A stretch of DNA of 64,000 bases from Podarcis gaigeae (lineage: Eukaryota), in NCBI GenBank assembly GCA_964106915.2, contig OZ066914.1; one strand, written 5' to 3'. The first letter of the stretch is position 1, and each line of letters opens with the position of its first letter. The translations under genes were made by a program, and so were the position numbers. This document shows, in pieces, positions 3,268-63,559 of this stretch. The notes under the pieces are model-generated. The model saw nothing but the letters and a program-made list of their open reading frames with translations, was not told the origin of the DNA and ran no database searches.

Positions 3268-5373
3268 AAAGAGAGGCTTGAACCATCCCAAACGTACATA
3301 TATCTGTCAGGGTGGTGGTAGTGACAGCAGGGGGAATATAAAATCTGTAGAGTAGTGGTATTGCAACGTAAGTAGGTCTCCCATCTAGCAAAGCATTTCC
3401 AAAATGATTTCAGGAGGTGAGTTAGGCCAGTAGAAATGGTTGTTTCAAATCCTTTGATCATTGTCTGTTGGTTCTAGAAATCTGCTCTGTAAATTGCTCT
3501 TTAAACATAATGTAAACAAATTTTCAAGGATAGGAAAGGGAGGTGCATAAGACATCATTCTACTCTTGGCACTTTGCCAAGTACAACAAAGAGTGACGAC
3601 TGGAATGTGACCTTGGTGACAAATGATCGTTAGAGAAAATTACCTGAGTGCGTTAAAGTATTTGTATCTGCTTTAATTTTGACTAGTTCCTGTATGGTAG
3701 CTCCACAGTACAGTATTTTGGTACTTGGACAGAGAGGTCTTGCACCATCTAGTTTTGTGTTTATTGTTTAGTTGTTACAAAAAAAAACCAAACCCAACAA
3801 CTCTGGCAGTTTCTTTTTAATGCAGGCTATATTTCTAAGTACTGTACTGGAATAGGAACCACTATTTCCTCCATTCCTTTGGCTTTGCTCTTGCTCCCTG
3901 GCCTGCCCAGGGGCCCTTGATAATTGTTCTCACAAATACCCCCTTCTGGATTTCAACAACAACACACACACACACACACACACACGTGCCCCGCTCCAGG
4001 CAGGTAGGGATGTTCCAGTCCCCCATGACCTGTTTAACTGGTCATTTCTGCAACATCTTCTCCTTCTGGCAGTTCTTTGGGCATCTGATCCAGTGTAGTT
4101 TATGACCTTTGGAGTTGAACTATTTGCTTTACTGTCAGATAAAAGAATTTGCTTGTTATTGAGGAGAGGAGGGGGAGTGCAAAAAAAGAAAAATGAGGTT
4201 GGACCAAGTGGCAAGTTCTATTCACTTAAGGCCCATCAGTTTCAACAGAAGCTTAAGTAAAGGTGAGTGCATCCCATTGATTTAAGTGTTGTCTAATTTC
4301 AGTTTAGTATGGAGGATCTAAACCTTTATATCCCTTGACTTCTGCTGGAGTCTTGCTTTTGACTCAAGTCCTTGCAGCTGCCTAGAATTGTAAATTTATA
4401 GAGGTGGGCTTTTTCCATCCAAGGGCCCCAGTTCCTCATAGGAAATCTTTGGGAAACTACATACCTGTGGTGGGCGTAGCCAGAGGTAAAAGTGGGCAAA
4501 CAACAGAAGTGACACTTGCTTTTGTACCATAGGCTGTGTTCCAGCCACACAAAAGTGCACGTTTTCCCAGTGATCCATCCAAGCAGGAGATGCAGTATTC
4601 TCAAAGTTCATGGACGCATTCCAGCCAAGCAAAAACCTTGAAGAAGGTTTCAGTGCAGGGCTGGTGAGGGCTGTGGCTTGAGGAGAGGCCCGATAAAGGA
4701 ATTTGGCCTGAGGGTCTCCACCCATGCTCTCCAAACAATGCAAGGTTCACTCTCTGCTCATGTGACTGGGCGTCTCCCCTCAACTGTATTCTTTAAGCCT
4801 AATTAGGATTGCTAGATGTCCTTTGCTCTGTTTTCAAAGGATCAATCCTTACTTTAAGAAGCCAGTTTAGGAAAGCATTATGGGATAGGAAATTGTGACA
4901 TTAGAGAATAAGGGATAGTCCTTTAAAATAAACTTCCCGCAGGAGATAATGGGCATGCCTTTGCCCTGTGTCAACATTATAGATCCAAAATGCCTTTTGT
5001 ATTTCTAAATATTTTAAGTAAACCTAATTTAACCCTGACCTTGCAGCTTCTTCCCTGATGTGGGTGCTGTTTGCAGCAGTATAAATTCATTTTATTTGCA
5101 AATGTGTTTAGCAATGGTGGGGGAACTGTGTCCACTCTCTCCAGATGTTGTTGGAGCTCTCGACTCCCATCAGCCCCAGCCAAATATGGCAAGTGGTAAT
5201 CCAACACCCTCTGGAGGGCTACAGGTTCCCACTCCTGGTTTGCCACTGAATTTTTCTCTCAGTTTGTTAATTCCTTTGACTTGTACCATTGTTAAGTCAT
5301 TGCAGAAATTGGCATTTGTACTTTTCATTATCCCTCACTCCTTGACCCTGTTAGGGTTTGATCAGATGATATC

Positions 5374-6198
5374 TGTCAGAGCTGCCCTAGGTCCCAGCTC
5401 ACAAAGGACCAACGCCAGTTCTTGTTATATACAAAAGTCTTTATTGAAGTTCAGTTTCGATTTCAAAGCCGCGGCGCGCAGCTCTACGTCTTAAACTCTA
5501 GACCGCTGAAGCTCCGCCTGAATCTCCTCCCCCCAGACACCAGTTTAAGACTCTAGCCTTGCTCCACCTCTTCCTCTGCTCTTTCCTTCTCTGGGTCCGC
5601 CTGTCCACTGGGGTCTTGCCCTTTCTGGACTCTTCTGACGCTGAGTCCCCTGATTCTTCCCCCTGCCTCCGGCGGGCTTTAGGACCTGGTTCCCAATCCG
5701 GGTTCTCTGCCGTCCCGCGCGCCTGTACATTTGAACTTGGCGCGTGCGCCCAGCTGGCAACCTTTCTCCTGACCGTTACACTGCTCCTGTCACTGCTTCC
5801 CCCTTCGGGGGGGCTAGTTGGACCTGACTTCCCCTCTGTTCCCTCACTCTCTGATAGAGGCGTGGTCAGCCCGGACTCATCTCCTTTCCCTACTGGAGGA
5901 GACGCTGGCCCTGATACATGGGACTCTTCCCCCCCCACTACGCTCTGGTGGGGGAACTGGTCCTGATCTCCCGCTGCTGCTTTGGGAGTCCCCGCTGGCC
6001 CCTTGCTTCTGGTGCGTCCCCCCTGGGACCCCCCTTGCCCTGGCCATCGGCGCCCCCCTCTGGGAATCTTCTGAATCGCTGGAGAAGCTCATGGAATCTC
6101 TCGGGCCACTGTCATACTCCCCTACGCTGCCCTCAGATTCTTCCCCTTCGCTCTCCGTTTCCTCTCTCCCCTGTGCCTCTGCTCCTGAACCCCTGACA
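5374..6198 (-). mobile_element. Solo LTR (825 bp), probably Gypsy/Ty3-type
   Basis: Ends TGTCAG...CTGACA (TG..CA) with a perfect 5-bp TSD ATATC at 5369-5373 and 6199-6203. AATAAA on the minus strand at 5440-5445 lies near the 3' end. Visibly more GC- and CpG-rich than its flanks. Confidence 0.85.
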
Positions 6199-8049
6199 AT
6201 ATCTATGAGAAGATACTTTATAACCATAATACCTTTTTCATTATGATTTAGGAGATCTCCCTTGGTCTCACTCTAGCCAGACAGGAAATGAATGGGGCAT
6301 CTTTTCTGTGTGTTTTTTTCCATGTACATGGAGAGGAGATAACATGTGCTGAAGATGAAAGCAATGCTTCCAGATAGGAAAGGGTGATGTTTACATAAGC
6401 TTCAGTAGTCTGGCAGATGTAACTTCCTTGTCCTATCAGTTCCCGTTTCCTTTCACTATATGAATTGTCATAGCAGCAGTTTGAGGTGCCAGTACCCAAC
6501 CTCTTATGTACATACACAAGGCAGGATAAACAATAAAGTGCAAATTAGTCTTTGGTGGACGGGAAGGCCAAGGTCTCAACAACCTCACTTTGGAAGAACC
6601 CAATTCTATCTGTCAGGCAAAAAGCTTTTCCTGACAATTCTGTCTTTCTGGACCCAACCACATTCTCTCTCACTTTCCCTCCAACTAAAAAGCCATGGTA
6701 AATGAAGAAGAATGCTGCCCTTTGCACCAGTTTTTAAACTAATCATTAAACTGCTTATCATGACCCCTCCTTCCATTTCTTTTCAGTACTCAGATCTGAC
6801 TAGGGAATAGCAGGACTGCCTTGCAAATGTCAATTCTGCAAAACAAGTAGACCCTTCCTTTTTCTCTGTGTTCAAGTTCTCCCTGTTTATTCGGTGAGTG
6901 CCCCCTTAAACATCCGGAAAGGATTTGTTTGCCCTTCCTCTGAACTGCTTCTCACAATGTTGTGTTGTCTTGCGAAATTACTTTCTTTCACTTCTCCCTC
7001 TTCCCCCCATAGGCCCCTGGAAGGAAAAATAATTTTTGGAAAAGAGGAGGGGTGTGTGTGTATGGAAAATATTGCATCTGCTGTGGCATGGATGGCTGCC
7101 ATGTTCTCTTCTCCCTCCCCAGGGGGCTTCCATATGTTTGCCCACCTGTGATTGGTCAAAATTAATCTGTTCACACAGGCTCTCCTCTCCTCAAGGAGTC
7201 TCCTCAGGAGAAAGTTGCCCTCTTTCCCTAGAGAACTAGCTTGCTTAGAAGCTGTGGGTGAGTGGGAACAAGCTAGAAAGGAGTGCCAATGTTTTGCAAC
7301 TGAGGGAGCGTACCATCTTGGCAGCCTTTGGCCTCATAAGTCGGCACTTTGGTTTAAGCAGCCGCGGTTGAGGTACAGTTTGTTCCTAAAGAGGCCTAGG
7401 AGCAGCAACATCTGTTTTTTATATTCATTGGGACATAGGAAGGAAATTGCCATCTAGCTCAATACTGTCTACACTGACTGGCAGAGGCTCTTCAGGGTTT
7501 CAGGCAGGGGTATCTCCCAGCCCTACCTGGAGAAGATTGAAACCTGGGACCTTCTGCATGCCAAACACATGCTCTGCCATTAAGGCTGAATTTGTGACAT
7601 ACAGATTCATTAATCCCTGAGTTTGTAGCCTTAGCATATCCAGTCATTGCCTAGCACCGTAGCAAGATTGTGGATGATACAATTTATCAAAAAATTGAAA
7701 ATTTTTTCAAGGCTCTTCTTGCCTTGCCTGCCCCACACATCTGTAGCATATCAACACCCTGAATGGGGACTGGGATGGGGAGGCAACCAAATTTCACTGG
7801 CTGCCTGGCGTGATTCTAACATGCCACACAGGCTGCTTGCACAGCATACATTTAAAGCACAACAGAATCCTGGGAGCTGTAGTTTGCGCCTCAAAGAGCT
7901 ACAATTCCCAGCACCTTGGATAAAGTACCGTTCCCAGGATCCTTAGAAGGAAGCCGCATAGTTTAAACATATGGTGTGTACATACGACTGGGCAACTGGG
8001 TATACAACTCTGGCATTCTCCTGTTGTAGAGACAAGCACAACCATAGCA

Positions 8050-30400: not shown

Positions 30401-33400
30401 TGACTATCTTTGTAAGTACAGTTTTTTGTGTGGTTTGCATTCGAATGATGCAAAATCTCTATTGGGGGGAGATGGTGGAAGAAGGGTCTAAGATGAAGTG
30501 TAGGGCAATGCATTTGACTCGCCACAAATTTTCAAGCAAAATAAATTGTCCAAATTGGTTTAGTATGTAAAAAATAAATACTTGCAATTCTATCCCCTTT
30601 TCATAAATTCAGAACACCTTTGTATATCAAATATTGGGATCAACTAACTAGCCTTGCTAGTGGAAGTGGGCTTTCCCCCTTTTCTTCTCCCTACACCCCC
30701 AAAATTGACTTTGGGTGTGTATGAGAGAAGCCACAGAAAAGTATGTAGGGAAAAGTGGGGTGGGGGTGGGTTGTTCCATCTGGTGAGGTGAAAAGCTTGT
30801 GCTGACTGGATGATTGCCATAGTGCTAGGAAAAGGGCCAGCACAGAGTAGCAGATAAAGTATTTCTGTTATGTAAATAATGGAAGAAGCCGAAACTATTT
30901 GTCCTGATGTGTAACTAGGGGGTCAAAGGATGCTGTAGGTCAGAAGTGGGGAACCTGTGACCCTCCAGATGTTGTTGGACTCCAACTCCCATATGTCCCA
31001 GCCATGATGGTCAGTGGCCACAGATTACGGAATCTGTTAGATCTGGAAGGCCACATTTTCACCATCTCTAGTGCAGATGGTGCTCTGTTAATTTTTGTTT
31101 TGTTTTCTGATTTTCCCTAGACCATGTCCACGGCATTCATGACTGGCACAATCGCAAGGTACTGTGCAAAGTGGTAAATGGAAGTGATACAGTAGAGGCC
31201 TACACAGTGGGAAGCTGTTTCTGAGCTGGATTTAGAAAATGTCTCCAAATAGGTCATATCCCCAGACGCTACTGCACATCCCTTTTCACCCCTCTGCATG
31301 GAACTCATTTCTATGGTTGTGGCTGCAAAAAAATTAAATTAAATTAAATTAAAAATTGCATAGCAAAAGTGTGGAAATAATTTAACATCCTGACAGAATG
31401 TGAAAAGTTCAGCAGGTGGAAAGTACAGGAGGTAGTAGTGAGGGAAACAATAGCCAATAATGCAAAATTAAGTCTGCAATCCTAAACAAACCTAGAATTA
31501 TGGGTGCTTGGAGTTGAACTGACCAAAGGTCATCTACTCCAACTTCCTGCTTATGCAGGCAGTCTGCTGCCACAGCTTCCCTGGGAGATGGCTGTCCAGC
31601 CTCTCCTTTAAAAAAAACCAACACCCCCCCCTTACTAGATTCTTTAATTGCTACTGGGGAAATTCCACTGAACATAGTGGAGCTTATTTCTGAGTAAACA
31701 TCCCTAGGATTGCACTGTGAGAGAAGCAAACAATCAAGTGGATTCTTGATGAAATAAGGAAGCAGAAGGGTCTTGGCTCAATGATAGAGACCTGTTCTGC
31801 GTGCAGATGCTCCCAGCTTCAATTCCTAGGGCTGAGAGAAACCTGCCTGAAACCTTCGAGAGCTGCTGCCAGTCAGTGTAGGCATAACTGAGCTGGATGA
31901 ACTGAAAGGTTGACTTGGCATAATGCAGCTTCCTATTTTCCTATGTTTGCACCAGCAAAATCATGTGGCTGGAGCATTGGATACAACCCCTCAAGTTTGA
32001 AAAGTTGTTGTTGTTTAGTCGTTTAGTTGTGTCCGACTCTTCGTGACCCCATGGACCAGAGCACGCCAGGCACTTCTGTCTTCCATTGCCTCCCGCAGTT
32101 TGGTCAGACTCATGTTTGTAGCTTCGAAGACACTATCCAACCATCTCGTCCTCTGTCATCCCCTTCTCCTTGTGCCCTCCACCTTTCCCAACATCAGGGT
32201 CTTTTCCAGGGAGTCTTCTCATGAGGTGGCCAAAGTATTGGAGCCTCAGCTTCATGATCCAGTGAGCACTCAGGGCTGATTTCCTTCAGAATGGATAGGT
32301 TTGATCTTCTTGCAGTCCATGGGACTCTCAAGAGTCTCATCCAGCACCATAATTCAAAAGCATCAATTCTTCAGCGATCAGCCTTCTTTATGGTCCAGCT
32401 CTCACTTCCATACATCACTACTGGGAAAACCATAGCTTTTACTATACGGACCTTTGTTGGCAAGGTGATGTCTCTACTTTTTAAGATGCTGTCTAGGTTG
32501 GTCATTGCTTTCCTCCCAAGAAGCAGGCGTCTCTTAACCATCTGCAGTGATCATGGAGCCCAAGAAAGTAAAATCTCTCACTGCCTCCATTTCTTCTCCT
32601 TCTATTTGCCAGGAGGTGATGGGACCAGTGGCCATGATCTTCGGTTTTTTGATGTTGAGCTTCAGACCATATTTTGCGCTCTCCTCTTTCACCCTCAATA
32701 AAAGGTTCTTTAATTCCTCCTCACTTTCTGCCATCAAGGTTGTGTCATTTGCATATCTGAGGTTGTTGATATTTCTTCCAGCAATCTTAATTCCGGCTAG
32801 GGATTCATCCAGCCCAGCCTTTCACATGATGAATTCTGCATATAAGTTAAATAACCAGGGAGACAATATATAGCCTTGTCGTACTCCTTTCCCAATTTTG
32901 AACCGATCAGTTGTTCCATATCCAGTTCTAACTGTAGCTTCTTGTCCCACATAGAGATTTCTCAGGAGACAGATGAGGTGATCAGGCACTCCCATTTCTT
33001 TAAGAACTTGCCATAGTTTGCTGTGGTCGACACAGTCAAAGGCTTTTGCATAGTCAATGAAGCAGAAGTAGATGTCTTTCTGGAACTCTCTAGCTTTCTC
33101 CATAATCCAGCGCATGTTTGCAATTTGGTCTCTGGTTCCTCTGCCTCTTCGAAATCCAGTTTGCACTTCTGGGAGTTCTTGGTCCACATACTGCTTGAGC
33201 CTTCCTTGTAGAATTTTAAGCATAACCTTGCTAGCGTGTGAAATGAGTGCAATTGTGCGGTAGTTGGAGCATTCTTTAGCACTGCCCTTCTTTGGGATTG
33301 GGATGTAGACTGATCTTCTCCAATCCTCTGGCCACTGCTGAGTTTTCCAAACTTGCTGGCATATTGAGTGTAGCACCTTAACAGCATCATCTTTTAAAAT

Positions 33401-36400
33401 TTTAAATAGTTCAGCTGGAATACCATCACTTCCACTGGCCGTGTTATTTGCAGTGCTTTCTAAGGCCCATTTGACTTCACTCTCCAGGATGTTTGGCTCA
33501 AGGTCAGCAACCCCACTACCTGGGGTGTACGAGACATCCATATCTTTCTGGTATAATTCCTCTGTGTATTTTTGCCACCTCTTCTTGATGTCTTCTGCTT
33601 CTGTTAGGTCCTTACCACTTTTGTCCTTTATTATGGCAATCTTTGAACGAAATGTTCCTTTCATATCTCCAATTTTCTTGAACAGATCTCTGGTTCTTCC
33701 CATTCTGTTGTTTCCCTCTATTTCTTTGCATTGCTCGTTTAAGAAGGCCTTCTTATCTCTCCTTGCTATTTTTTGGAAATCTGCATTCAGTTTCCTGTAT
33801 CTTTATCTCCCTCGCATTTTGCTTGCCTTCTCTCCCCCGCTATTTGTAAGGCCTCATTGGACAGCCACTTTGCTTTCTTGCATTTCCTTTTCATTGGGAT
33901 GGTTTTCGTTGCTGCCTCCTATATAATGTTGCGAGCCTCCATCCATAGTTCTTCAGGCACTCTGTCTAGCAAATCTAAATCCTTAAACCTGTTCCTCACT
34001 TCCACTGTGTATTCATAAGGGATTTGATTTAGATTGTATCTTACCGGCCCAGCGGTTCAGTGCATAAACTTGGATTACTGTTATGTTAAAAGGTCTGCCT
34101 TGGATTCGTATCGAGATCATTCTATCATTTTTGAGATTGCATCCCAGTACTGCTTTCGCCACTCTTTTGTTGACTATGAGGGCCACTCCATTTCTTTTGC
34201 GGGTTTCTTGCCCACGGTAGTAGATATGATGGTCATCCGAACTGAATTCGCCCATTCCCGTCCATTTTAGTTCACTGGTGTCCAGGATGTCAATATTTAT
34301 TCTTGCCATCTCATTTTTGACCACATCCAACTTACCAAGGTTCATGGTTCTTACATTCCAGGTTCCTATGCAATATTTTTCTTTACAGCATTGGACTTTC
34401 CTTTCGCTTCCAGGCATATCCGCAACTGAACGTCCTTTCGGCTTTGGCCCAGCCGCTTCATCAGCTCTGAATCTACTTGTACTTGTCCTCCGCTCTTCCC
34501 CAGTAGCATGTTGGATGCCTTCCGACCTGAGGGGCTCATCTTCCAGCGTCATAACTTTTATATGCCTGTTGTCTTTGTCCATGGAGTTTTCTTGGCAGGG
34601 ATACTGGAGTGGCTTGCCGGTTCCTCCTCCAGGTGGATCACGTTTGGTCAAAACTCTCCACTATGACCGTTTGAAAAGTACCTTGTGCCTAATTTTGTTG
34701 TTGTTGTTGCATTATAATAAAATTATTTTAACAAAAATGTATGATTTATTTTTTTTACCTTTTTGTTACCAGCGTGTATGATACCAAGACTGTAGTCATT
34801 GCCATGATCATCACAGCAGTTGTAACCATCACTGTCACTGTTTTCTCCTTTCAGACAAAGGTGAGAAAGCCCGTTTTTTTCCAGTACAGTTAGCAGGCTT
34901 AGGAAGGGTGATTACCCTGTGGTGGAAATGGTGACTTAGCTAAACATGTTTGGATCCCACCCTTACAATACAAGGCCCTTGTCATAAACAAGAAATTCCT
35001 TGTCATGGTGTTATGTACACCTGGCCTGTCATTACGACATGCAGCCCTCCATTTCATGAGTTAGGCGAGACAGCCACCCTTCTCTTTTGTATGCTCCCAT
35101 GAGCTGATCTTTCGGGGGGGGGGGGACACCATAGATATAATAATGCAGGCTAATGGCTGCAATTGTGACTACCCCTCCATTAAAAAATGGTATATGCAGG
35201 TAGAAAACTGGTTCCAGCCTGGCGAGCTCTAAACTAGAGGCCTTCCTTTTCCTCACACACTGGATTTACATGGATAGGAACATGGAAACACTCAATACAA
35301 AGTAGTTGTCTCCCAGGGTGCTTATGCGGTTCTTGCTGTTTGCCTTAAACTTTCACATCAGCTGTATATTGTAGACCCTCTTTGTGTGTAGTTTCAGAAC
35401 TGCACAGGCAATATTTTATCTCATTAAAATAAATTGATTGTAAAAACCTGGTTACATGGCTTGGTGGGGGCAGAAAGGGATGGAGGAGAGAGTGTTGTTG
35501 TTCTCAGTTCCTTCTTTTGGGTTTCCCACAGGCATCTGATTGGCCACTGTGAGAAGAGGATGCTGGACTATATGGGCATTTGGCCGGATCCTGTTCTTAA
35601 GTCCCCCCCAGGCATCTGGGAGCAAATTAGTAGGCTTCCGCCATGTGTATGTAACACACTAAAATCAGAAAAGAATTACTTTCTCTTGCTTTCCTGTCTG
35701 TCGTGCTAAAAAAAAAAGCCCCCACAGTTCCTCTGTTTACTGATTTGAGAGGAACTCCATCATACCTAGTGGGGCTTCTGAACAGACTTGCAGAGAATTG
35801 GGAATTCTAATCTGAGGTAGCCATGGCTGAAAGTGGAAAGTGGACAGTTTTTATGTCAGGTTAGTTAATCCAGGACACTGTTGTCTTTGGCTCTGCCCAC
35901 CTGTTGCCCTCAGTACAAAAATGGTTGCCCACCCGTGACGGAGGACTTCATAACTGAATACATTTGGGCAGTAATACTTCCAGAGGTAATAAGGTATTTT
36001 TGTCACTTCCTCCGTTGACAGGTGGATCTCACAACCTGGCGTGGTTTCTTCTGTATCATGGCCATTGTCTTCATGGTGACTGGCATTGCCACTGCCATTG
36101 TCCTGAGCTGCAAATACGTAAGTGGCTGGGGAACTTGCTAGCCTATGGGATCAGCAATACAACAAAGCTTCCAGTGGCAAAGCAATCCCAGTTGATATGT
36201 GTGTGTGTGTTCGGTGGGGGCTGCTGCATTGTTTCAGGAGGCTTTGAGCAATGGCTGCCCTTGCCCAATCTCTCACTTTCCTGAAAGAGTTCATTCCCTT
36301 CCTTTGGACCAAGGCCTGTTTAGAAGTTCAGCTTTATTCCCTTTGCCTGCTGCCTTAAGCATCCCTTCAGTATGCAATATGTTCTCCATGGGAATATTTT

Positions 36401-40309: not shown

Positions 40310-42441
40310 CTAGGACTTCGTTTCAGCAAGTCCCTCTGTTTCTCGCAATGCCGTCCTGTATCGCTCTCTTTCATAGTCTCCCTCATTGGATGCCCTCATT
40401 TTCTGGCGGACTTTCAGCTGCTTCAGACGGTTCTTGTCCACTTCTCGTTTAGTGAGGAGGAAAAGGATGATGCCAGAAGGGAAACCAATGGCCCTGGAGA
40501 GAGGCAAAGAATACATAAGCCACAACTTGCTCCCAGGAAGATTTTGCTTGGGGCTGTTCAGTCTCACACCACAGCCTGATATCCTTCCACTCCCATACTC
40601 AGCCCATATATTCAAGGGTTCCTTAGCATTTCCATCAAACTGAGTTGCCTGGCATTGTAGGCTGCAAGATTGACAACTAACCTGGGGAGATCATAAAACA
40701 AACTGATGAAATGATGCTCACCAAGCAATGCCAACTGCCTTCATGGGGTTCTTGCCCTTCCTCCCTGTGGGAATATACTCCACATGTTCATAGGTCTTTC
40801 CACCAGACTGTGGTTTTGTCTGTAATTCTTCCAAAGCCCTGCAGCTCCTGTGGAAGGATCGGGCAGGAGTTCTGAAAGGCACACCTAAGCCTACAGCTCG
40901 GTTCATAGTGGCAGAAAGAAGGCCTGCAAAGGAGACACACTATAGTGAAATTGTACTTTTAAACATTTCATCTAGATTTATCCACCAATGCTATGTCCTA
41001 AACTCACTGAGTAACGTTGACCCTTTTAGTTTATGTACATGAAAATGTGCCTAGTGGTCTGATCCTATGCATTTGTGCTTCTAGGTGTGCCTTAGCAAAG
41101 TTCCTAAGCTGTCTTTTAAGAGGTCATCCATAGTGTGTTTGTCAGCATATTGCAAAGTGTCTTTTAATGTGCCTGATCCTTGGGACAATTCTGGTATAAC
41201 AAATCCTGGCAGGAGACTAAAATGCCAGTCAGATGCAGAAAATTAATATGGCTTCTGTGCTTTGAACAAATTCCATGGAAGGATATTTTGGCAGGCATGA
41301 CTGTCCTCTTCTTCACAGAGCTGTTGAAGTGCAAAGGAGCTCTATTAAAATAAAAACAAGGCTCTGGGGATTGGAGGTGTCTGTGCCCTCACCTACCTGG
41401 CCATGATTTACAAAGTGCTCCTCCATGGGCTGTTGTTGCAGCATGGCACAACAAACAGGGAGCATTTTTAAACCTGCTTTTTTTGCACACATCTGGTAGA
41501 TTAAAAAAACCCCGTGTATTAAAAAATCCATCAATCATTGGTCATTTTGCCTACTTTGAAACTTGCCTGAAAAGTTGGTTTGTTGGAAAGCTTGTCAGGC
41601 TATCTCACAGACAATTTTCTTAAGGTGTGTGTGGATAGCTAAATAAATTCCTGCATGCATGCCTACAGTGGACCTCCAGTTTCCAAAACTTATGGAGGTA
41701 AATACTAATTGAGAGGAGGGTCAACCACATACAGTGTGAATATATTCCACCAAGTGCCACCCACTAGTGGGGACAGGAAAAAAGAGGCATAAAATTGAAA
41801 GTGCTGTGTGGACAACACACACACAAAATCACTCCCGTTATGTATCAATGCCCTAGAGTGGGTACAGCCAAGGTATACTTTCCCTGTTACTCCCTTGCTT
41901 CCGTTTACCTGACCTAACGGTGGGAAACAACACATATTTTTATTCACAAATCTTCATTGTTTCAGCCCCCATATTTTACGGAGGGCAGAACTGCAGAATC
42001 CTCCAGCCTGGGAAGCCTTTCTTTCTGACCCTCCTGTGCCGGGCGGGGGCTTTGCTGCCCGGCATTGTTTTGCTTGCCAGCTGATCGACGGCATTTATGC
42101 AGCGGATTTGGTCTGAGTCTGCCGCTCGCCGCTGTTTTTGGGGGGAGTTGCACCAAAAAGTGACATTTAAAACAACTACTGTGGGGCAGAGCCCTGGGCC
42201 CTGGCTGGGAATCTCAGCACAGCCACAGAGCTCTCTAGGCGACACCTCTTCCTCTCCTAACCAGCCCCAGCAGCAGCAGCAGCAGCTGCTCCTCCTCCGC
42301 CGCCGCCTAATTCACCAGCCTACCCGCTCGCTGTTTCCTCCCCGATGCCAGACCCCGCTTCCTCCCCAACAAGGTCGCATTGCACGGGCAGCCGCGCCTC
42401 CCCTCCCTACCCTGCAATCGAACCCTGCAAGCGGCCGCCAT
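40310..42441 (-). CDS. PNKD: PNKD (myofibrillogenesis regulator 1) short isoform MR-1S, about 138 aa; exons 1-2 are shared with the long isoform
   Basis: Exon 1 42441-42411 (MAAACRVRLQ; donor CAGG|GTAGGG, with an alternative in-frame donor at 42324). Exon 2 40923-40722 (GLLSATMNRA...EYIPTGRKGKNPMKAVGIAW). Exon 3 40493-40310 (AIGFPSGIILFLLTKREVDKNRLKQLKVRQKMRASNEGDYERERY...*). Motifs and phases (1, 2) match PNKD-S. The exon 1 3' boundary is the least certain. Candidate AATAAA (minus) at 39834-39839. Confidence 0.88.
42268..42285 (+). repeat. (CAG)6 microsatellite followed by CTC/CCG triplets in PNKD intron 1
   Basis: Direct reading of the sequence. Confidence 0.85.
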
Positions 42442-42800
42442 CTCGGGGAAAAGTTCTCTCTCGCTTCCTCCCGCTGCGCGCCAGGTACTAGCAAGGTCGA
42501 GGAGAAGGAAGCGAACCCGACACTACAACTCCCATGACTCCCTTTTTCGACGGCGAGGGGTCACATGGGCAACGAAGGCGCTCCTTCTAGGAGGAGGAGG
42601 AGGCGGCCCTCTGGCTCGGAACGCGGAGCTGGCGAATGAGGGAGTCCGCGCTGATGACCCCTCCTCCGATTCGCTAGCCCGTTCCGATCCGCTTCGCTGA
42701 TTGGCGGCGGAGACTTTCACCCCGCCCCCCCCCCGCGACGGGAGGGAGGAGGAGATCAGCGTAGGCGCGTGCGGGTTGCTGGTAGGCTGAAGTCGTCAGC
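42442..42800. promoter_or_regulatory. Bidirectional CpG-island promoter shared by PNKD and AAMP
   Basis: 359 bp between divergent ATGs. Contains ACTACAACTCCCA (ZNF143/THAP11-type motif, 42522-42534), an inverted CCAAT box (ATTGG, about 42700) and a GC box CCCGCCCC (about 42721). A YY1-like GAGATGGCGGC overlaps the PNKD ATG. Confidence 0.85.
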
Positions 42801-45800
42801 ATGGCGGAACCCGCAGACGGGGCAGGTTTGGAGGCGGCCTCGGAGGGGCTCTTGCTGATGGCAGCCGGCGATGAGGAGGGGGCCGCGGAGGAGATCGTGG
42901 AGGTGGTGGACCTTGAGGCGCCTGGACCCGGTAAAGAGGCGAGGGACTGGGTGGCTGGGACGGGGACTTGGGATCCTTTTCCAGGGACTTTTGCAGAGGA
43001 AAACGTGACCACCCTGAAAAGTAGTAAGAGGGCTGACCGGTTAGGTGTCATCACCCCCATCCTCATTATCGTCACTCAGTCTGTCAGATTTATTTGTTAG
43101 GAGACTTTGGTCAACTACAGCCTAGCTGAGCGAAACATTTTAACATAAATCACCCCCTAGCACGTTGGACCTCGTTTTGTGCAATAAATCATTGGTTCAT
43201 CCGTTGGGTGCCTAGAGCAACCCTAGAAACCTTATATGTAATATACTATATTTATGCCTGTCAAGTAGTAAATAGCAGCTTTCTCCCTAATGTTAAAAAA
43301 AAGAGGAAACTGGCCCTTGAATCTTTTTCACAACCCATCCCTAGGGGATTATACAGGAAACAGTATAATACACTGTGAACAATCTTTTGGTCACAGATGC
43401 ACATACATTTACCGATATTCTGGTGTTCACCAACATCTTTGTTATTTATACACCCAGAGACAGGATGGATTTAGAGCTGGCCACTTGGAGGTGCTCTAGC
43501 TCAAGAATATTACAAAGACAAGTCTCTACCCCAAGAGGCTAACAATCTAGAATGGACACAGTGAAACAACAGAGAAAGGGGGAAATGGAGTCATGGGAAA
43601 TACATGTGATTATTTCAATTGCATGCTATTTGGCTTTGGGAACAATTCTGTGTGCAAGAAGCTGCCATAAAGTAAGCTGATGTAAATTAAGCCAGCGTAA
43701 AGTTAGATTAGGTCCATACATCATGGGGCATCGGGGGGGGGGGGCGCTGCTTTCTACCTAAGCTTGGTAGAGGGAAAACAAGCATTTAAAGTAGTGTTTT
43801 ATGCTGGGTTGCTAGGTCACATGACTGAGCTGAATGGGCTTAGGGTGCAGTCCAAATTCTACCCCCTCATCACACCTTTTGAGGGACTTATATTGGCCTT
43901 AGCTCTCGTGACTGAGCCAGAATGAGCAAGGTACACTGGCTTATCTTTGGCTGAGCTAGGGTTGGCTCTAAGGTGACCCAGTGCTTCCTATGTTGCTCAT
44001 CCTGGTGGATTTTGCCATAGGATTGCTGCCTTGGTTTAAAAAAAGGTATAGGTACAAAGCAGGTGATGGAGTAGCAATCACAGGGGGAATGGGAGAAGGG
44101 GAGCTGTTTGGAGGCAATGAATAAGAGAACAGAGGAGAGAGAGGGAGGATGGGGTTCATAATTATCAAAACCGATGTCTCACATAGGTTAGGGAACGCTA
44201 TTATGTATTACAATCTATAATTTGACATAGGAATATAATTGAGGGGCTCAGGTTCTAGTCACAGCAGCATTTCAGACCACATAGAGTGGAAGGGGCACAG
44301 GAGATTAGGGTTGTGATTTCTACAATTTGTCTGAATCCTTTGCAACTAAGACTTACTGGCACTTAGCTGTGGACTGAGGTTGGCAGTTTACCACGTAAGG
44401 TTCATTCTTCTCCTCTAAACAGGACTGTGAGTGCACACAGAGATACCACAGTTTAGCACACTTGCTTTTACTTATTATGCAGGGCTGGGTTGGAGGGGGG
44501 AACCTTCATGCTGACTGGCTTTGTAAAATAGCATTGCTTTGTTTGCTTCTGCAGATGATCTGGCTGATGAAATGGAAGATGTGGATTTAGATGAAGAGGA
44601 GGCTGCTTGGGAGGATGTTGAGGCAGAGGAAGGCATGGAGGCCCAAGATGACAGTGAGGTCACGTTCTCCAAACACACGGGTGAGCTGGTAGATGAATGA
44701 GAGTAGGCATCTCATTCATTATCTAGTGCCCCAGGTTTGGGCCTACCTATTCTGTGCCTATTTTGTGGCCCGGCAAGACTACTTTATTATTATTTGCAAA
44801 AGAAACCTGGTCGATAAAGGATTTAACCAGCTCTTTGTCAGTGGCTAGCACAGTATTCCATCGGTGGGTTGCTGACGCAAGGTCACACTAGCCGGTGAGC
44901 CTGCTTTCTACTTTTAAGTCCCAGCCCTGCTAATTTAAAGCCAGGGTTGGTGATGTGAATCATCTCTGCTGGTATTTTCCAAGATGGTGCTCTTCCATGT
45001 TTTTCTTTTACCTTAAAAGGGCCAGGTGCCCTTGAGCAAGGAATGGAGGGGAAGCACCTTTGCATCCTCTATAATGCTGTGCTGTTGTGGCTACAGGATG
45101 GTGCTGTTTCAGCTGAGAGTGTGCTTCACTTTCACTGTTCTTTCATTAACCTTTTGCTGGGAGAGAGCAACACAGTTATGCCCCAGTCAAGGATGGGGAA
45201 CTTGTGTCACTCCAGATATTGTTGGATTCCCAGCTCCCATCAACTCCCAGCCAGCATGGTCAATGATGAAATTTGGAGAGTGGCAGGTTTTGCATCTCTG
45301 GTGCTTTTGGTTCCTCTTGTTTGGATGCCCACAATAGGACTGTGAGTGTGAGAGAGAGGTATGTCTGGCTTCTGTCGCTAACATTGTTCTGTTTGTTCCC
45401 CCTAGCATCTGTTTTCTGCGTCAGTCTTGACCCCAAGACCAACACGCTGGCAGTGACAGGCGGTGAAGATGACAAGGCTTTTGTGTGGCGCCTCAGTGAT
45501 GGTGAGCTCCTCTTTGAATGCTCAGGTGAGGCTCTTCTGGGTAATACCTTGCAACTCTAATGCCAATATTTGAATTGCTTTGTGTTGCTGGGGTCAGCAT
45601 AAAACAGTTTTAACAATAAATACTTCCCTCTATCTTGGATAGCCCTGGGGATAAAGTGATCCATATCTAAAAACCTATATATAGGTAACTCTTCAGCTGG
45701 TGATTTGGATAGGAAGGTGTAGCAATGGAAAACATCTATATTTTTGAGGTGACTGAATATCCCCTCCTTTTACTTCTGGCATTGAAAGGACTGCCTGCAG

Positions 45801-62418: not shown

Positions 62419-63459
62419 TCAGCCTGGTGCCCCATTGAGGTCTGCCTCTGCAGGGCAATGATGACCATGTGGCAAGTGGGACTTTGCTTTGGCTTTCCTT
62501 TCCTTGCGCCCCTGTCTTTGACAACAGCCCCCACAGCATTTGGTGGCCATGTCTGTCCAAAATTGTGTGTACTGTCTGTTGCCAAGGCTCAGGATGACAG
62601 GCAGTGCAGCTGCGCTGCTGGTGCCTATGCAGGTGACGATAGGAATAATGAGAGGGTGGATGTTATGATTATGATCTATAGACAGCAGTGAGATATTCAG
62701 GCAAACAATATAGGGCACCCAGCAGGCCACGAAGATGAAGGAGACACTAGCAATCTTCTTAGCATTCCTCAGTTCCAGTTGCTGCTCCAGCTCTGAAGGG
62801 GGCTGGCCTTGGTTGACTGAATGAAGGAGTCTTGTGATGTCCTTAAGCTGCCTTCGGGATGTGCACAGCACCTGGATGCACATGAAGCCCATGGCAAGGA
62901 TGGATGGAATGAGGAGGCCATAGGTCTCTAGATAGAGGTAAGGAATAGGGAAGACCAGACCAAAGGAACAGTTGGCATGGGGCCGCCACTGGTTCCAAGC
63001 CAGTGGGAGGCATGCAAAGATCAAAGGAGCTGTCCAGGCTATGAATATGTAAAAACCAGGCCAGCGATACACCCAGGACCGGTGGTAATGCAGTGAGTGG
63101 ATGATGAACACATACTTAACATAGTGCACCACCAGCAGGTTGGCTAAGAAAGCAAGGAAGATGAAGTTAGGTGCCACATAGTTGAAGAAGCAGAGGTGGT
63201 AGTTTAAATCCTTCGTCGAGGACAGCTCAGGAATATTGGGAAGGAATAAGCCGGCCAGAAGATCAGCAAAGAGTAGGCTCAGGAAGAACCAGTTGCTGGT
63301 GTTGCGGAGTCTACGGTTGAAGAGGATCCCAAGGATGAGGAAGATGTTGGCCAAAACAATGAAGGCTGACAGGGGCCTTGAGAGCCAGATGATGATATTT
63401 TGTGTCATAGTTTCTGTGTCTCTAGTGAGGACTCCCCTATCCTCTGCACCTTCCGACAT
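62419..63459 (-). CDS. GPBAR1: G protein-coupled bile acid receptor 1 (TGR5), about 346 aa, single coding exon
   Basis: 7TM ORF with GPBAR1 motifs FFLSLLFADLLAG, YVAPNF, ANCS, YLYLETYGLLIP, RRQLKDI, CWVPY and SAAALP; convergent with AAMP as in other amniotes. The ORF-track start at 63507 falls in intron-like sequence: a branch/pyrimidine tract and acceptor TTCCATTAG|G at 63467/63466 put the likely ATG at 63459 (MSEGAED). Confidence 0.92.
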   Translation of the reverse strand: MSEGAEDRGVLTRDTETMTQNIIIWLSRPLSAFIVLANIFLILGILFNRRLRNTSNWFFLSLLFADLLAGLFLPNIPELSSTKDLNYHLCFFNYVAPNFIFLAFLANLLVVHYVKYVFIIHSLHYHRSWVYRWPGFYIFIAWTAPLIFACLPLAWNQWRPHANCSFGLVFPIPYLYLETYGLLIPSILAMGFMCIQVLCTSRRQLKDITRLLHSVNQGQPPSELEQQLELRNAKKIASVSFIFVACWVPYIVCLNISLLSIDHNHNIHPLIIPIVTCIGTSSAAALPVILSLGNRQYTQFWTDMATKCCGGCCQRQGRKERKAKAKSHLPHGHHCPAEADLNGAPG

Positions 63460-63559
63460 TGACTTCCTAATGGAAATGAGAAAGCACCCCATGTTATTAT
63501 TCAGCAAAGCCAGAAGGTTAGCTTGGCAAACTACATTTCACTTCCAAACCACTGTGGCC

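Follow-up and report, generated by a model that had tools for sequence, protein, structure and literature searches.

Introduction

In HIV nef and MMTV sag, coding sequence lies inside U3 and overlaps promoter DNA. Both are separate genes of enveloped retroviruses, and their RNAs are either spliced or started on their own. A GGGAAAC-type -1 frameshift site at the gag-pol overlap is known from PEG10 and Sushi.

In the plant CRM group A elements (CRM, Beetle, and Bingo), the gag-pol ORF is described as reaching the 3' LTR and coding the integrase C-terminus there (PMC3059260, PMC3605345). This LTR-coded end, called the CR motif, is considered a putative targeting domain (PMC3059260, PMC3605345), and the partner of this motif was reported as unknown (PMC3059260). 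The Tf1/Sushi group, or V-clade (Sushi-ichi, Amn), is described as comprising fungal and vertebrate chromoviruses (PMC6317226, PMC3601003, PMC4600332), and self-priming has been described for this group (PMC6317226, PMC4600332). The RRSARLSA motif of HMGN and Dsup is reported to bind the nucleosome acidic patch (PMC12487698).

In this study, a 64-kb window of the Podarcis gaigeae genome (64,000 nucleotides) was analyzed. A solo LTR in this window very probably derives from a chromovirus whose Pol carries a selected tail, likely disordered and serving nuclear entry or chromatin hold.

The solo LTR and its copies

The solo LTR occupied 825 bp (5374..6198, minus strand) and had TGTCA...TGACA ends. 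It was flanked by the target-site duplication (TSD) ATATC on the left (5369..5373, plus strand) and on the right (6199..6203, plus strand). It belonged to subfamily A of a Ty3/Gypsy element, probably a chromovirus of the Tf1/Sushi type, and was the single copy of this LTR in the 64-kb window. Both LTRs of the two-LTR element L031 matched it.

A DNA similarity search gave 2917 first-look candidates for the subfamily A LTR across the 1.51 Gb genome. Among the best 40 of these candidates, the 39 other scored copies were 96–98% identical to the window LTR. The divergence of the window copy was 1.8% from its nearest fetched relative, with a mean of 2.9% over the fetched copies. A 5-bp duplication was present in 22 of the 28 delimited subfamily A copies; the polypurine tract (PPT) preceded three of these 28, and the primer-binding site (PBS) followed two. 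Several solo LTRs (L013, L016, L021, and L129) were surrounded by microsatellites of (TAT)n/(AAT)n or (GATA)n, and the target duplications often looked like R-N-W-N-Y, which may reflect a weak target preference.

The LTR copies were spread over at least 18 contigs and were enriched on C32. This 29.5-Mb contig makes up about 2% of the genome. It held 11 of the top 40 LTR matches and 24 of the top 40 internal-region matches, and it is perhaps a repeat-accumulating, possibly non-recombining chromosome. Near-identical copies at about 24–27 Mb of C32 suggested segmental duplications.

Other features were seen in the window. An intronless frame of 372 codons at 62419-63537 (minus strand) had a rhodopsin-family 7TM domain and is a host GPCR gene. 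Two LINE ORF pieces at 32822-34660 (minus strand) showed a reverse transcriptase (Pfam RVT_1) and an endonuclease-like start; the LINE is presumably RTE/BovB-like. A GC peak of 0.64 at 42001-43000 is likely a CpG-island promoter.

The reading frame in the LTR

Two overlapping minus-strand frames without stops were found in the window, at 5877-6272 and 5498-6088. The initial annotation had described a frame switch between two minus-strand ORFs at a G run, and the overlap and the G homopolymer at 5929..5936 (minus strand) confirmed it. The switch is either a slip after insertion or an assembly error. The ATG at 6227, taken to open the first ORF, proved to be host DNA that lies beyond the TSD.

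Removal of one G had been proposed to give one frame of 233 codons from the LTR edge to 5498. Natural copies bore this out: 20 of 29 other top-scoring subfamily A copies were stop-free from LTR base 2 to a stop at base 698. The length also held, corrected to 232 sense codons plus a stop. In one A copy carrying a 3-base insertion, the stop of the open frame stood at base 701. This frame (5498..6197, minus strand), which codes for the C-terminal tail of Pol/integrase in open copies, is broken in the window copy. The A copies were picked by DNA similarity and not by frame, and it was these natural copies, not a repaired window sequence, that served to verify the single frame. The remaining two sense frames of the A LTR typically had about 10 and about 6 stops. 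Among the 28 delimited copies, the G run differed in length from that of the window in 22, had the same length in two (window included), and had an altered motif in four. The AATAAA polyadenylation signal (5440..5445, minus strand) lay 53 bases past the stop, in agreement with the proposed position of the stop just upstream of it.

The same frame was open in other subfamilies. Subfamily B (823-bp LTR) was recovered by DNA search. Of its 30 copies, 26 were delimited and 4 were not, and 22 of the 26 had the frame open. In subfamily C (760-bp LTR), 27 of 29 copies were open, a count biased by recovery through protein search.

Pol read-through across the PPT

L031, defined by two matches 5.9 kb apart, is a 6713-bp element with LTRs 1.5% apart and the TSD GCTAC. 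Its gag ORF matched Retrotrans_gag, Ty3_capsid, and a weak zinc knuckle in Pfam. Its pol ORF of 1591 aa overlapped gag in the -1 frame, and the Pfam order was RVT_1, RT_RNaseH, Integrase_H2C2, and rve, followed by a Tf2-1-like SH3; the protease match was below the cut-off (E 0.004). No env-sized ORF was found between pol and the LTR in the two-LTR element. The TG...CA LTRs with TSD, gag, the PR-RT-RH-IN order, and the lack of env are those of a Ty3/Gypsy element. GGGAAAY occurred 938–1119 bases past the 5' LTR in nine of ten elements.

The pol of L031 contained an apparently degenerate chromodomain, about 155 acidic residues, the PPT read as G-rich codons, and 232 LTR residues. Its stop was that of the window frame and lay 700 bases inside the 3' LTR of 824 bases. 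A second A element, L154, also had a pol of 1591 aa that ended at this LTR stop. The pol of the C element L153 (1528 aa) shared this endpoint within its 3' LTR, and the B element L152 had a stretch of 1229 aa from RT to the LTR stop, after an internal stop. Across subfamilies A–C, about 155 internal and 210–232 LTR-coded residues followed the chromodomain remnant. The Podarcis muralis proteins P0001 and P0002 had the same junction and tail; P0003 and P0004 left the frame before or at the junction.

Since the two-LTR copies and P0001/P0002 share the junction, the U3 frame codes for the terminal part of Pol and is no separate gene. It is almost certain that pol crosses the PPT in frame and that its last 232 residues are LTR-coded. 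The initial annotation had suggested that a U3 gene may start in the internal region and continue across the boundary of the 3' LTR. This part stood, and full-length elements had the in-frame ORF upstream of the PPT, which is pol. The part that made it a separate accessory gene of the nef or sag type did not stand.

Homologue searches gave 4, 4, and 10 proteins, and the named ones were all from Podarcis, which points to a host among lacertid-type lizards; distant tails were too divergent for sequence search. Databases already list LTR-tail fragments as Podarcis proteins, either hypothetical or uncharacterised.

Read-through in other families

Further families were found in the same genome by searches with distant proteins. 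Families D and E (411–413-bp LTRs) read 304–310 bases into the 3' LTR, and family F (365 bp) read 217 bases. In family K (578–600-bp LTRs), four of the six copies fetched read 349–355 bases in. For D–F, 6 of 18 extra stretches (L211, L213, L215, L217, L221, and L227) had clean LTRs and a chromodomain frame ending 217–310 bases into the 3' LTR. L222 was similar, ending 253 bases in, with a less clean LTR end. Three delimited copies (L210, L219, and L226) had an early stop, and the rest of the 18 were not delimited. Among the families recovered by these protein searches, no related one without read-through was seen.

LTR base 2 was the first codon position in D, E, F, and K alike. Even at 52% RT-RNase H identity, the families had one junction phase, read as G-x-D-V-R or, for K, as G-V. 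The RT-RNase H identity to A was 64–68% for D–F and 52% for K, with a well-supported tree of the in-genome sequences. The tails of the distant families had 71–117 residues, acidic and then basic. They were not alignable in detail, and the plan was an acidic low-complexity part, an Arg-rich patch, and then L-x-[CN]-W (A–F). The K copies L254, L255, L256, and L257 had 115–117 LTR codons, with RRSARL at the tail end in all four and an otherwise low-complexity tail.

The Pfam Chromo match in subfamily A reached 15.8 bits, below the cut-off of 25.1. Chromo passed in the alignable relatives P0012–P0015 (30.6–47.4 bits) and in K (56 bits), and D/F-like proteins had 43–47 bits. The A–C chromodomain looked degenerate, with the aromatic-cage positions judged by eye. 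The families form a natural chromodomain series: intact (K), partial (D–F), and apparently degenerate (A–C). Family K, which has an intact chromodomain and a tail, speaks against an origin of the tail only once the chromodomain was lost.

Broken copies

Among the 20 other PPT-bearing A copies, 18 had their frame shifted by an indel in the region that extends from 100 bases before the LTR as far as the stop. Of 31 single-base indels, 23 were in runs of 4 or more; many were in the PPT, and several affected the same PPT runs across copies. Among L032–L061, single-base losses in the PPT G runs were far commoner than in G/C runs inside the LTR. These losses come either from slippage in reverse transcription or from assembly error.

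With a PPT-shifted query, all 25 K loci ended at most 84 bases past the LTR start, a result biased by the query, and the LTR frame of the same loci was mostly still open for 115–120 codons. Use of K as a negative control, which came from one PPT-shifted copy, was dropped with the finding that four of six K copies read through. Since PPT frameshifts were frequent in A and K, tail-less copies are common and may have spread. The shifted copies would fit post-insertion slippage, homopolymer assembly error, spread in trans, or a tail dispensable in the short run. The window copy is a neutral relic because its upstream gene is lost and its frame is shifted.

Selection on the LTR-coded tail

The dN/dS was calculated by the Nei-Gojobori method on natural two-LTR copies. 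The LTR part of the tail had a dN/dS of 0.27–0.35 in five between-subfamily pairs, with bootstrap upper limits of 0.42–0.51. The tail before the LTR had 0.20–0.41, and the RT, RNase H, and IN core had 0.04–0.12. Constraint was uneven along the LTR part. The first 45 codons (6063..6197, minus strand), which are acidic, Ser-rich, and strongly conserved, and the basic-W block had a dN/dS of 0.09–0.13, from few sites in three subfamily pairs that share branches and are not independent. The middle third had 0.48–0.71, with intervals that reached or exceeded 1. The D/E tails had a dN/dS of 0.14–0.20, and the values for F and K were 0.46 and 0.48.

The subfamilies diverged by 15–18% within the frame. 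Indels between subfamilies had 3 and 63 bases inside the frame and 1–2 bases past the stop. The spectrum-corrected pN/pS of the pol frame was 0.40–0.51 (z 3.8–5.1), and 0.45–0.61 (z 2.5–3.9) once CpG columns were removed. The two other sense frames had a pN/pS of 1.05–2.2. Singletons, used as a rough neutral control, had a pN/pS of 0.65–0.71, each non-significant, and shared variants had 0.30–0.40. Since singletons leaned synonymous too, the neutral baseline of this test lies below 1, and for the same reason the selection signal is moderate and smaller than the raw ratio implies. The conservation of the last 20 codons may be partly at the DNA level, since a TATA-like box and the self-priming site overlap them.

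Alternative explanations

Read-through could be passive: the LTR boundary would have moved into the pol 3' end, the peptide would do little, and the purine-rich, T-poor U3 would be open by chance or for a DNA- or RNA-level need, such as the promoter or a short 3' UTR against nonsense-mediated decay. The base composition of U3 (only 12% T) would fit this, as would a tail of 71–232 aa that scales with U3 length and stops near the U3/R boundary, the weakly constrained middle third, and the frequency of PPT-shifted copies. We consider it improbable, however. Base composition predicts 7.8 stops in the A frame, and the probability of an open frame is 4e-4 for A and 4e-4 to 1e-3 per subfamily. A selected peptide is also favoured by the strong constraint (dN/dS about 0.1) at both ends of the frame, in its first 45 codons and its basic-W block, and by the silent-site variation of the L-L-C-W motif of D/E. 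Moreover, the gag and pol frames differ, so most ribosomes would presumably stop at gag, and a longer pol would leave their 3' UTR no shorter.

A separate accessory gene in U3, whether of the nef or sag type or as an additional ORF, would be expressed from its own or a spliced RNA. Such a gene is very improbable. The frame is indeed open, conserved, and selected, the tail has internal Met codons, and the LTR is covered by RNA reads from a related organism. Yet no stop separated the frame from pol in any of the four two-LTR copies of A, B, and C, the strength of selection was continuous across the PPT, and the junction phase was fixed over the range of families given above. No splice joint into U3 was found in the four RNA runs of the related organism.

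Selection for an antisense (plus-strand) product, whose frame (L031:1138-2145, plus strand; L152:6241-6900, minus strand; window 5502-5966 and 5818-6246, plus strand) shares the wobble base with pol, can be practically dismissed: it is nearly stop-free in A (1 stop in 19 copies) with the same synonymous excess, and in two RNA runs most first mates were on the antisense-RNA strand, if the libraries were of the usual stranded kind, but all 21 of 21 B copies have a stop at one site and 23 of 26 C copies have one at another, the sense amino-acid content predicts only 1.1–2.0 stops, the synonymous excess mirrors that of the pol frame, and most RNA reads ran on into host flanking DNA, the pattern expected when host transcripts contain solo LTRs. 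The caveat of the initial annotation about plus-strand ORFs is resolved by the stops in B and C. A comparison of wobble transversions between the sense and antisense frames had counts too few to separate them.

LTR anatomy and transcription

The PBS was not tRNA-like and was complementary over 11 bases to the LTR at base 679 (A), 676 (B), and 613 (C). The match between the PBS and the LTR site changed on both sides, with covariation across B, C, D, E, and K. Among ten elements, the self-priming pairing had no mismatch in six, one in three, and two in one. This pairing is that of a self-priming PBS of the Tf1/Sushi kind, with the transcript start placed by inference. In the window, the self-priming site (5509..5519, minus strand), with one mismatch to the family PBS, would be the first 11 transcript bases and the start of R. 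To judge by this pairing, transcription likely starts at LTR base 679, which would make U3 678 bases long and wholly coding. The pol stop would then lie about 20–22 bases into R.

A TATA-like TTAAA (5544..5548, minus strand) lay 29 bases upstream of this putative start, inside L-N codons. It was kept in A, B, and C and is a candidate promoter element. In four RNA runs of a related organism, at 85% likeness, depth was mainly on the LTR and was 0–4 just inside the PPT. In the same four runs, the reads on the LTR mostly extended into unrelated flanks, without a clear start site. A search of sequencing runs listed no RNA run with the sequence.

Features and proposed function of the tail

The SGP repeats with silent codon differences were present as the initial annotation claimed (starts 6110, 5966, 5914, and 5827). 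The third repeat was missing in subfamily C, altered in B, and in or beside the 63-base segment that C lacks. The SGPxxPP repeats (5807..5966, minus strand) were rejected as a functional motif; by sequence and dN/dS they are a low-constraint linker in the least constrained third (dN/dS 0.5–0.7).

The basic C-terminal block pointed out in the same annotation was present at 5602-5564. The basic patch, followed by W-S and L-x-W-C (5537..5602, minus strand), was the most conserved protein motif, with a dN/dS of 0.10–0.13. R409, T411, R413, R420, W421, S422, L427, W429, and C430 were invariant in nine sequences. AlphaFold2 on the 9-row alignment gave a mean pLDDT of 40, below 50 almost throughout, and predicted a single helix over the basic patch (residues 410–419, pLDDT about 50). 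The LTR-coded part matched no Pfam family at E 0.1, and the ESM Atlas gave no usable match for the tail. The chromodomain region gave one chance match (E 0.4) against PDB sequences.

The conservation described above makes a protein-level function of the tail highly likely. From its sequence, this function is somewhat likely to be nuclear import or chromatin tethering. In the proposed mechanism, the genomic RNA would start at LTR base 679 and would carry U3 at its 3' end alone. Ribosomes that shift by -1 at GGGAAAC, where gag and pol overlap, would make Gag-Pol, which would end about 20 bases inside R. After protease cleavage, the tail would stay on integrase as a long, mostly disordered extension. 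The acidic linker may act as a flexible spacer, and the basic patch and L-x-W motif may bind importin or the nucleosome surface.

Nucleosome docking was taken as a lead because RRSARL of family K matches the start of the HMGN motif and because there is a plant precedent. In lizard Sushi-type elements, all of U3 may have been turned into an integrase tethering tail independently of CRM, with HMGN-like nucleosome docking by its Arg-rich end (RRSARL in K, the basic patch and L-x-W in A–F) that replaces the decaying A–C chromodomain; this proposal is tentative, and we think it rather doubtful. If nucleosome tethering is true, the tail would be the counterpart, in a vertebrate, of the plant CR motif (PMC3059260). 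The tail is a short peptide and is testable on its own.

Thousands of candidate LTR matches in the genome carry a protein-coding U3, by which gene predictors can be misled. The reading frame also limits how the promoter of these elements can evolve.

Comparison with known systems

The openly available literature that was covered yielded no pol read-through into the LTR of a vertebrate element. Repeat annotators may already be aware of such read-through in vertebrates.

The six residues RRSARL of family K equal the start of the HMGN/Dsup motif RRSARLSA as given in the available text (PMC12487698). This match, in an Arg-rich context, is a lead only, and the Arg-rich patch of family A is without the exact motif. 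A coding U3 is shared with nef and sag, but the lizard frame is fused to pol in an element without env.

The lizard element resembles the Tf1/Sushi group, as described in the available text of the reports, in the PR-RT-RH-IN order with a Tf2-1-like SH3 and a chromodomain, or its remnant, after IN (PMC6317226, PMC3601003, PMC4600332). The TGT...ACA ends fit the Sushi att motif, and the AATAAA near the LTR end and the self-priming PBS are further likenesses (PMC6317226, PMC3601003, PMC4600332). The Sushi U3 is described as T-rich, whereas the lizard U3 is T-poor and coding, and pol running into the LTR is not mentioned in the available text of these reports (PMC6317226, PMC3601003, PMC4600332). 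The subfamily A chromodomain, under the Pfam cut-off, is another difference.

CRM group A, as far as its available descriptions go, has the same layout, with pol reaching into the 3' LTR, and is the closest described case. In CRM group A, the CR motif is described as replacing the chromodomain (PMC6317226), whereas the lizard element keeps a chromodomain or its remnant upstream of the PPT. The host of CRM group A is a plant and its PBS is of tRNA-Met; the lizard element has a self-priming PBS and lizard protein relatives. Unlike CRM group A as described, the lizard element reads through all of U3, and homology of its tail to the CR motif is not expected. The lizard element works like CRM group A in layout and is not a member of that group.
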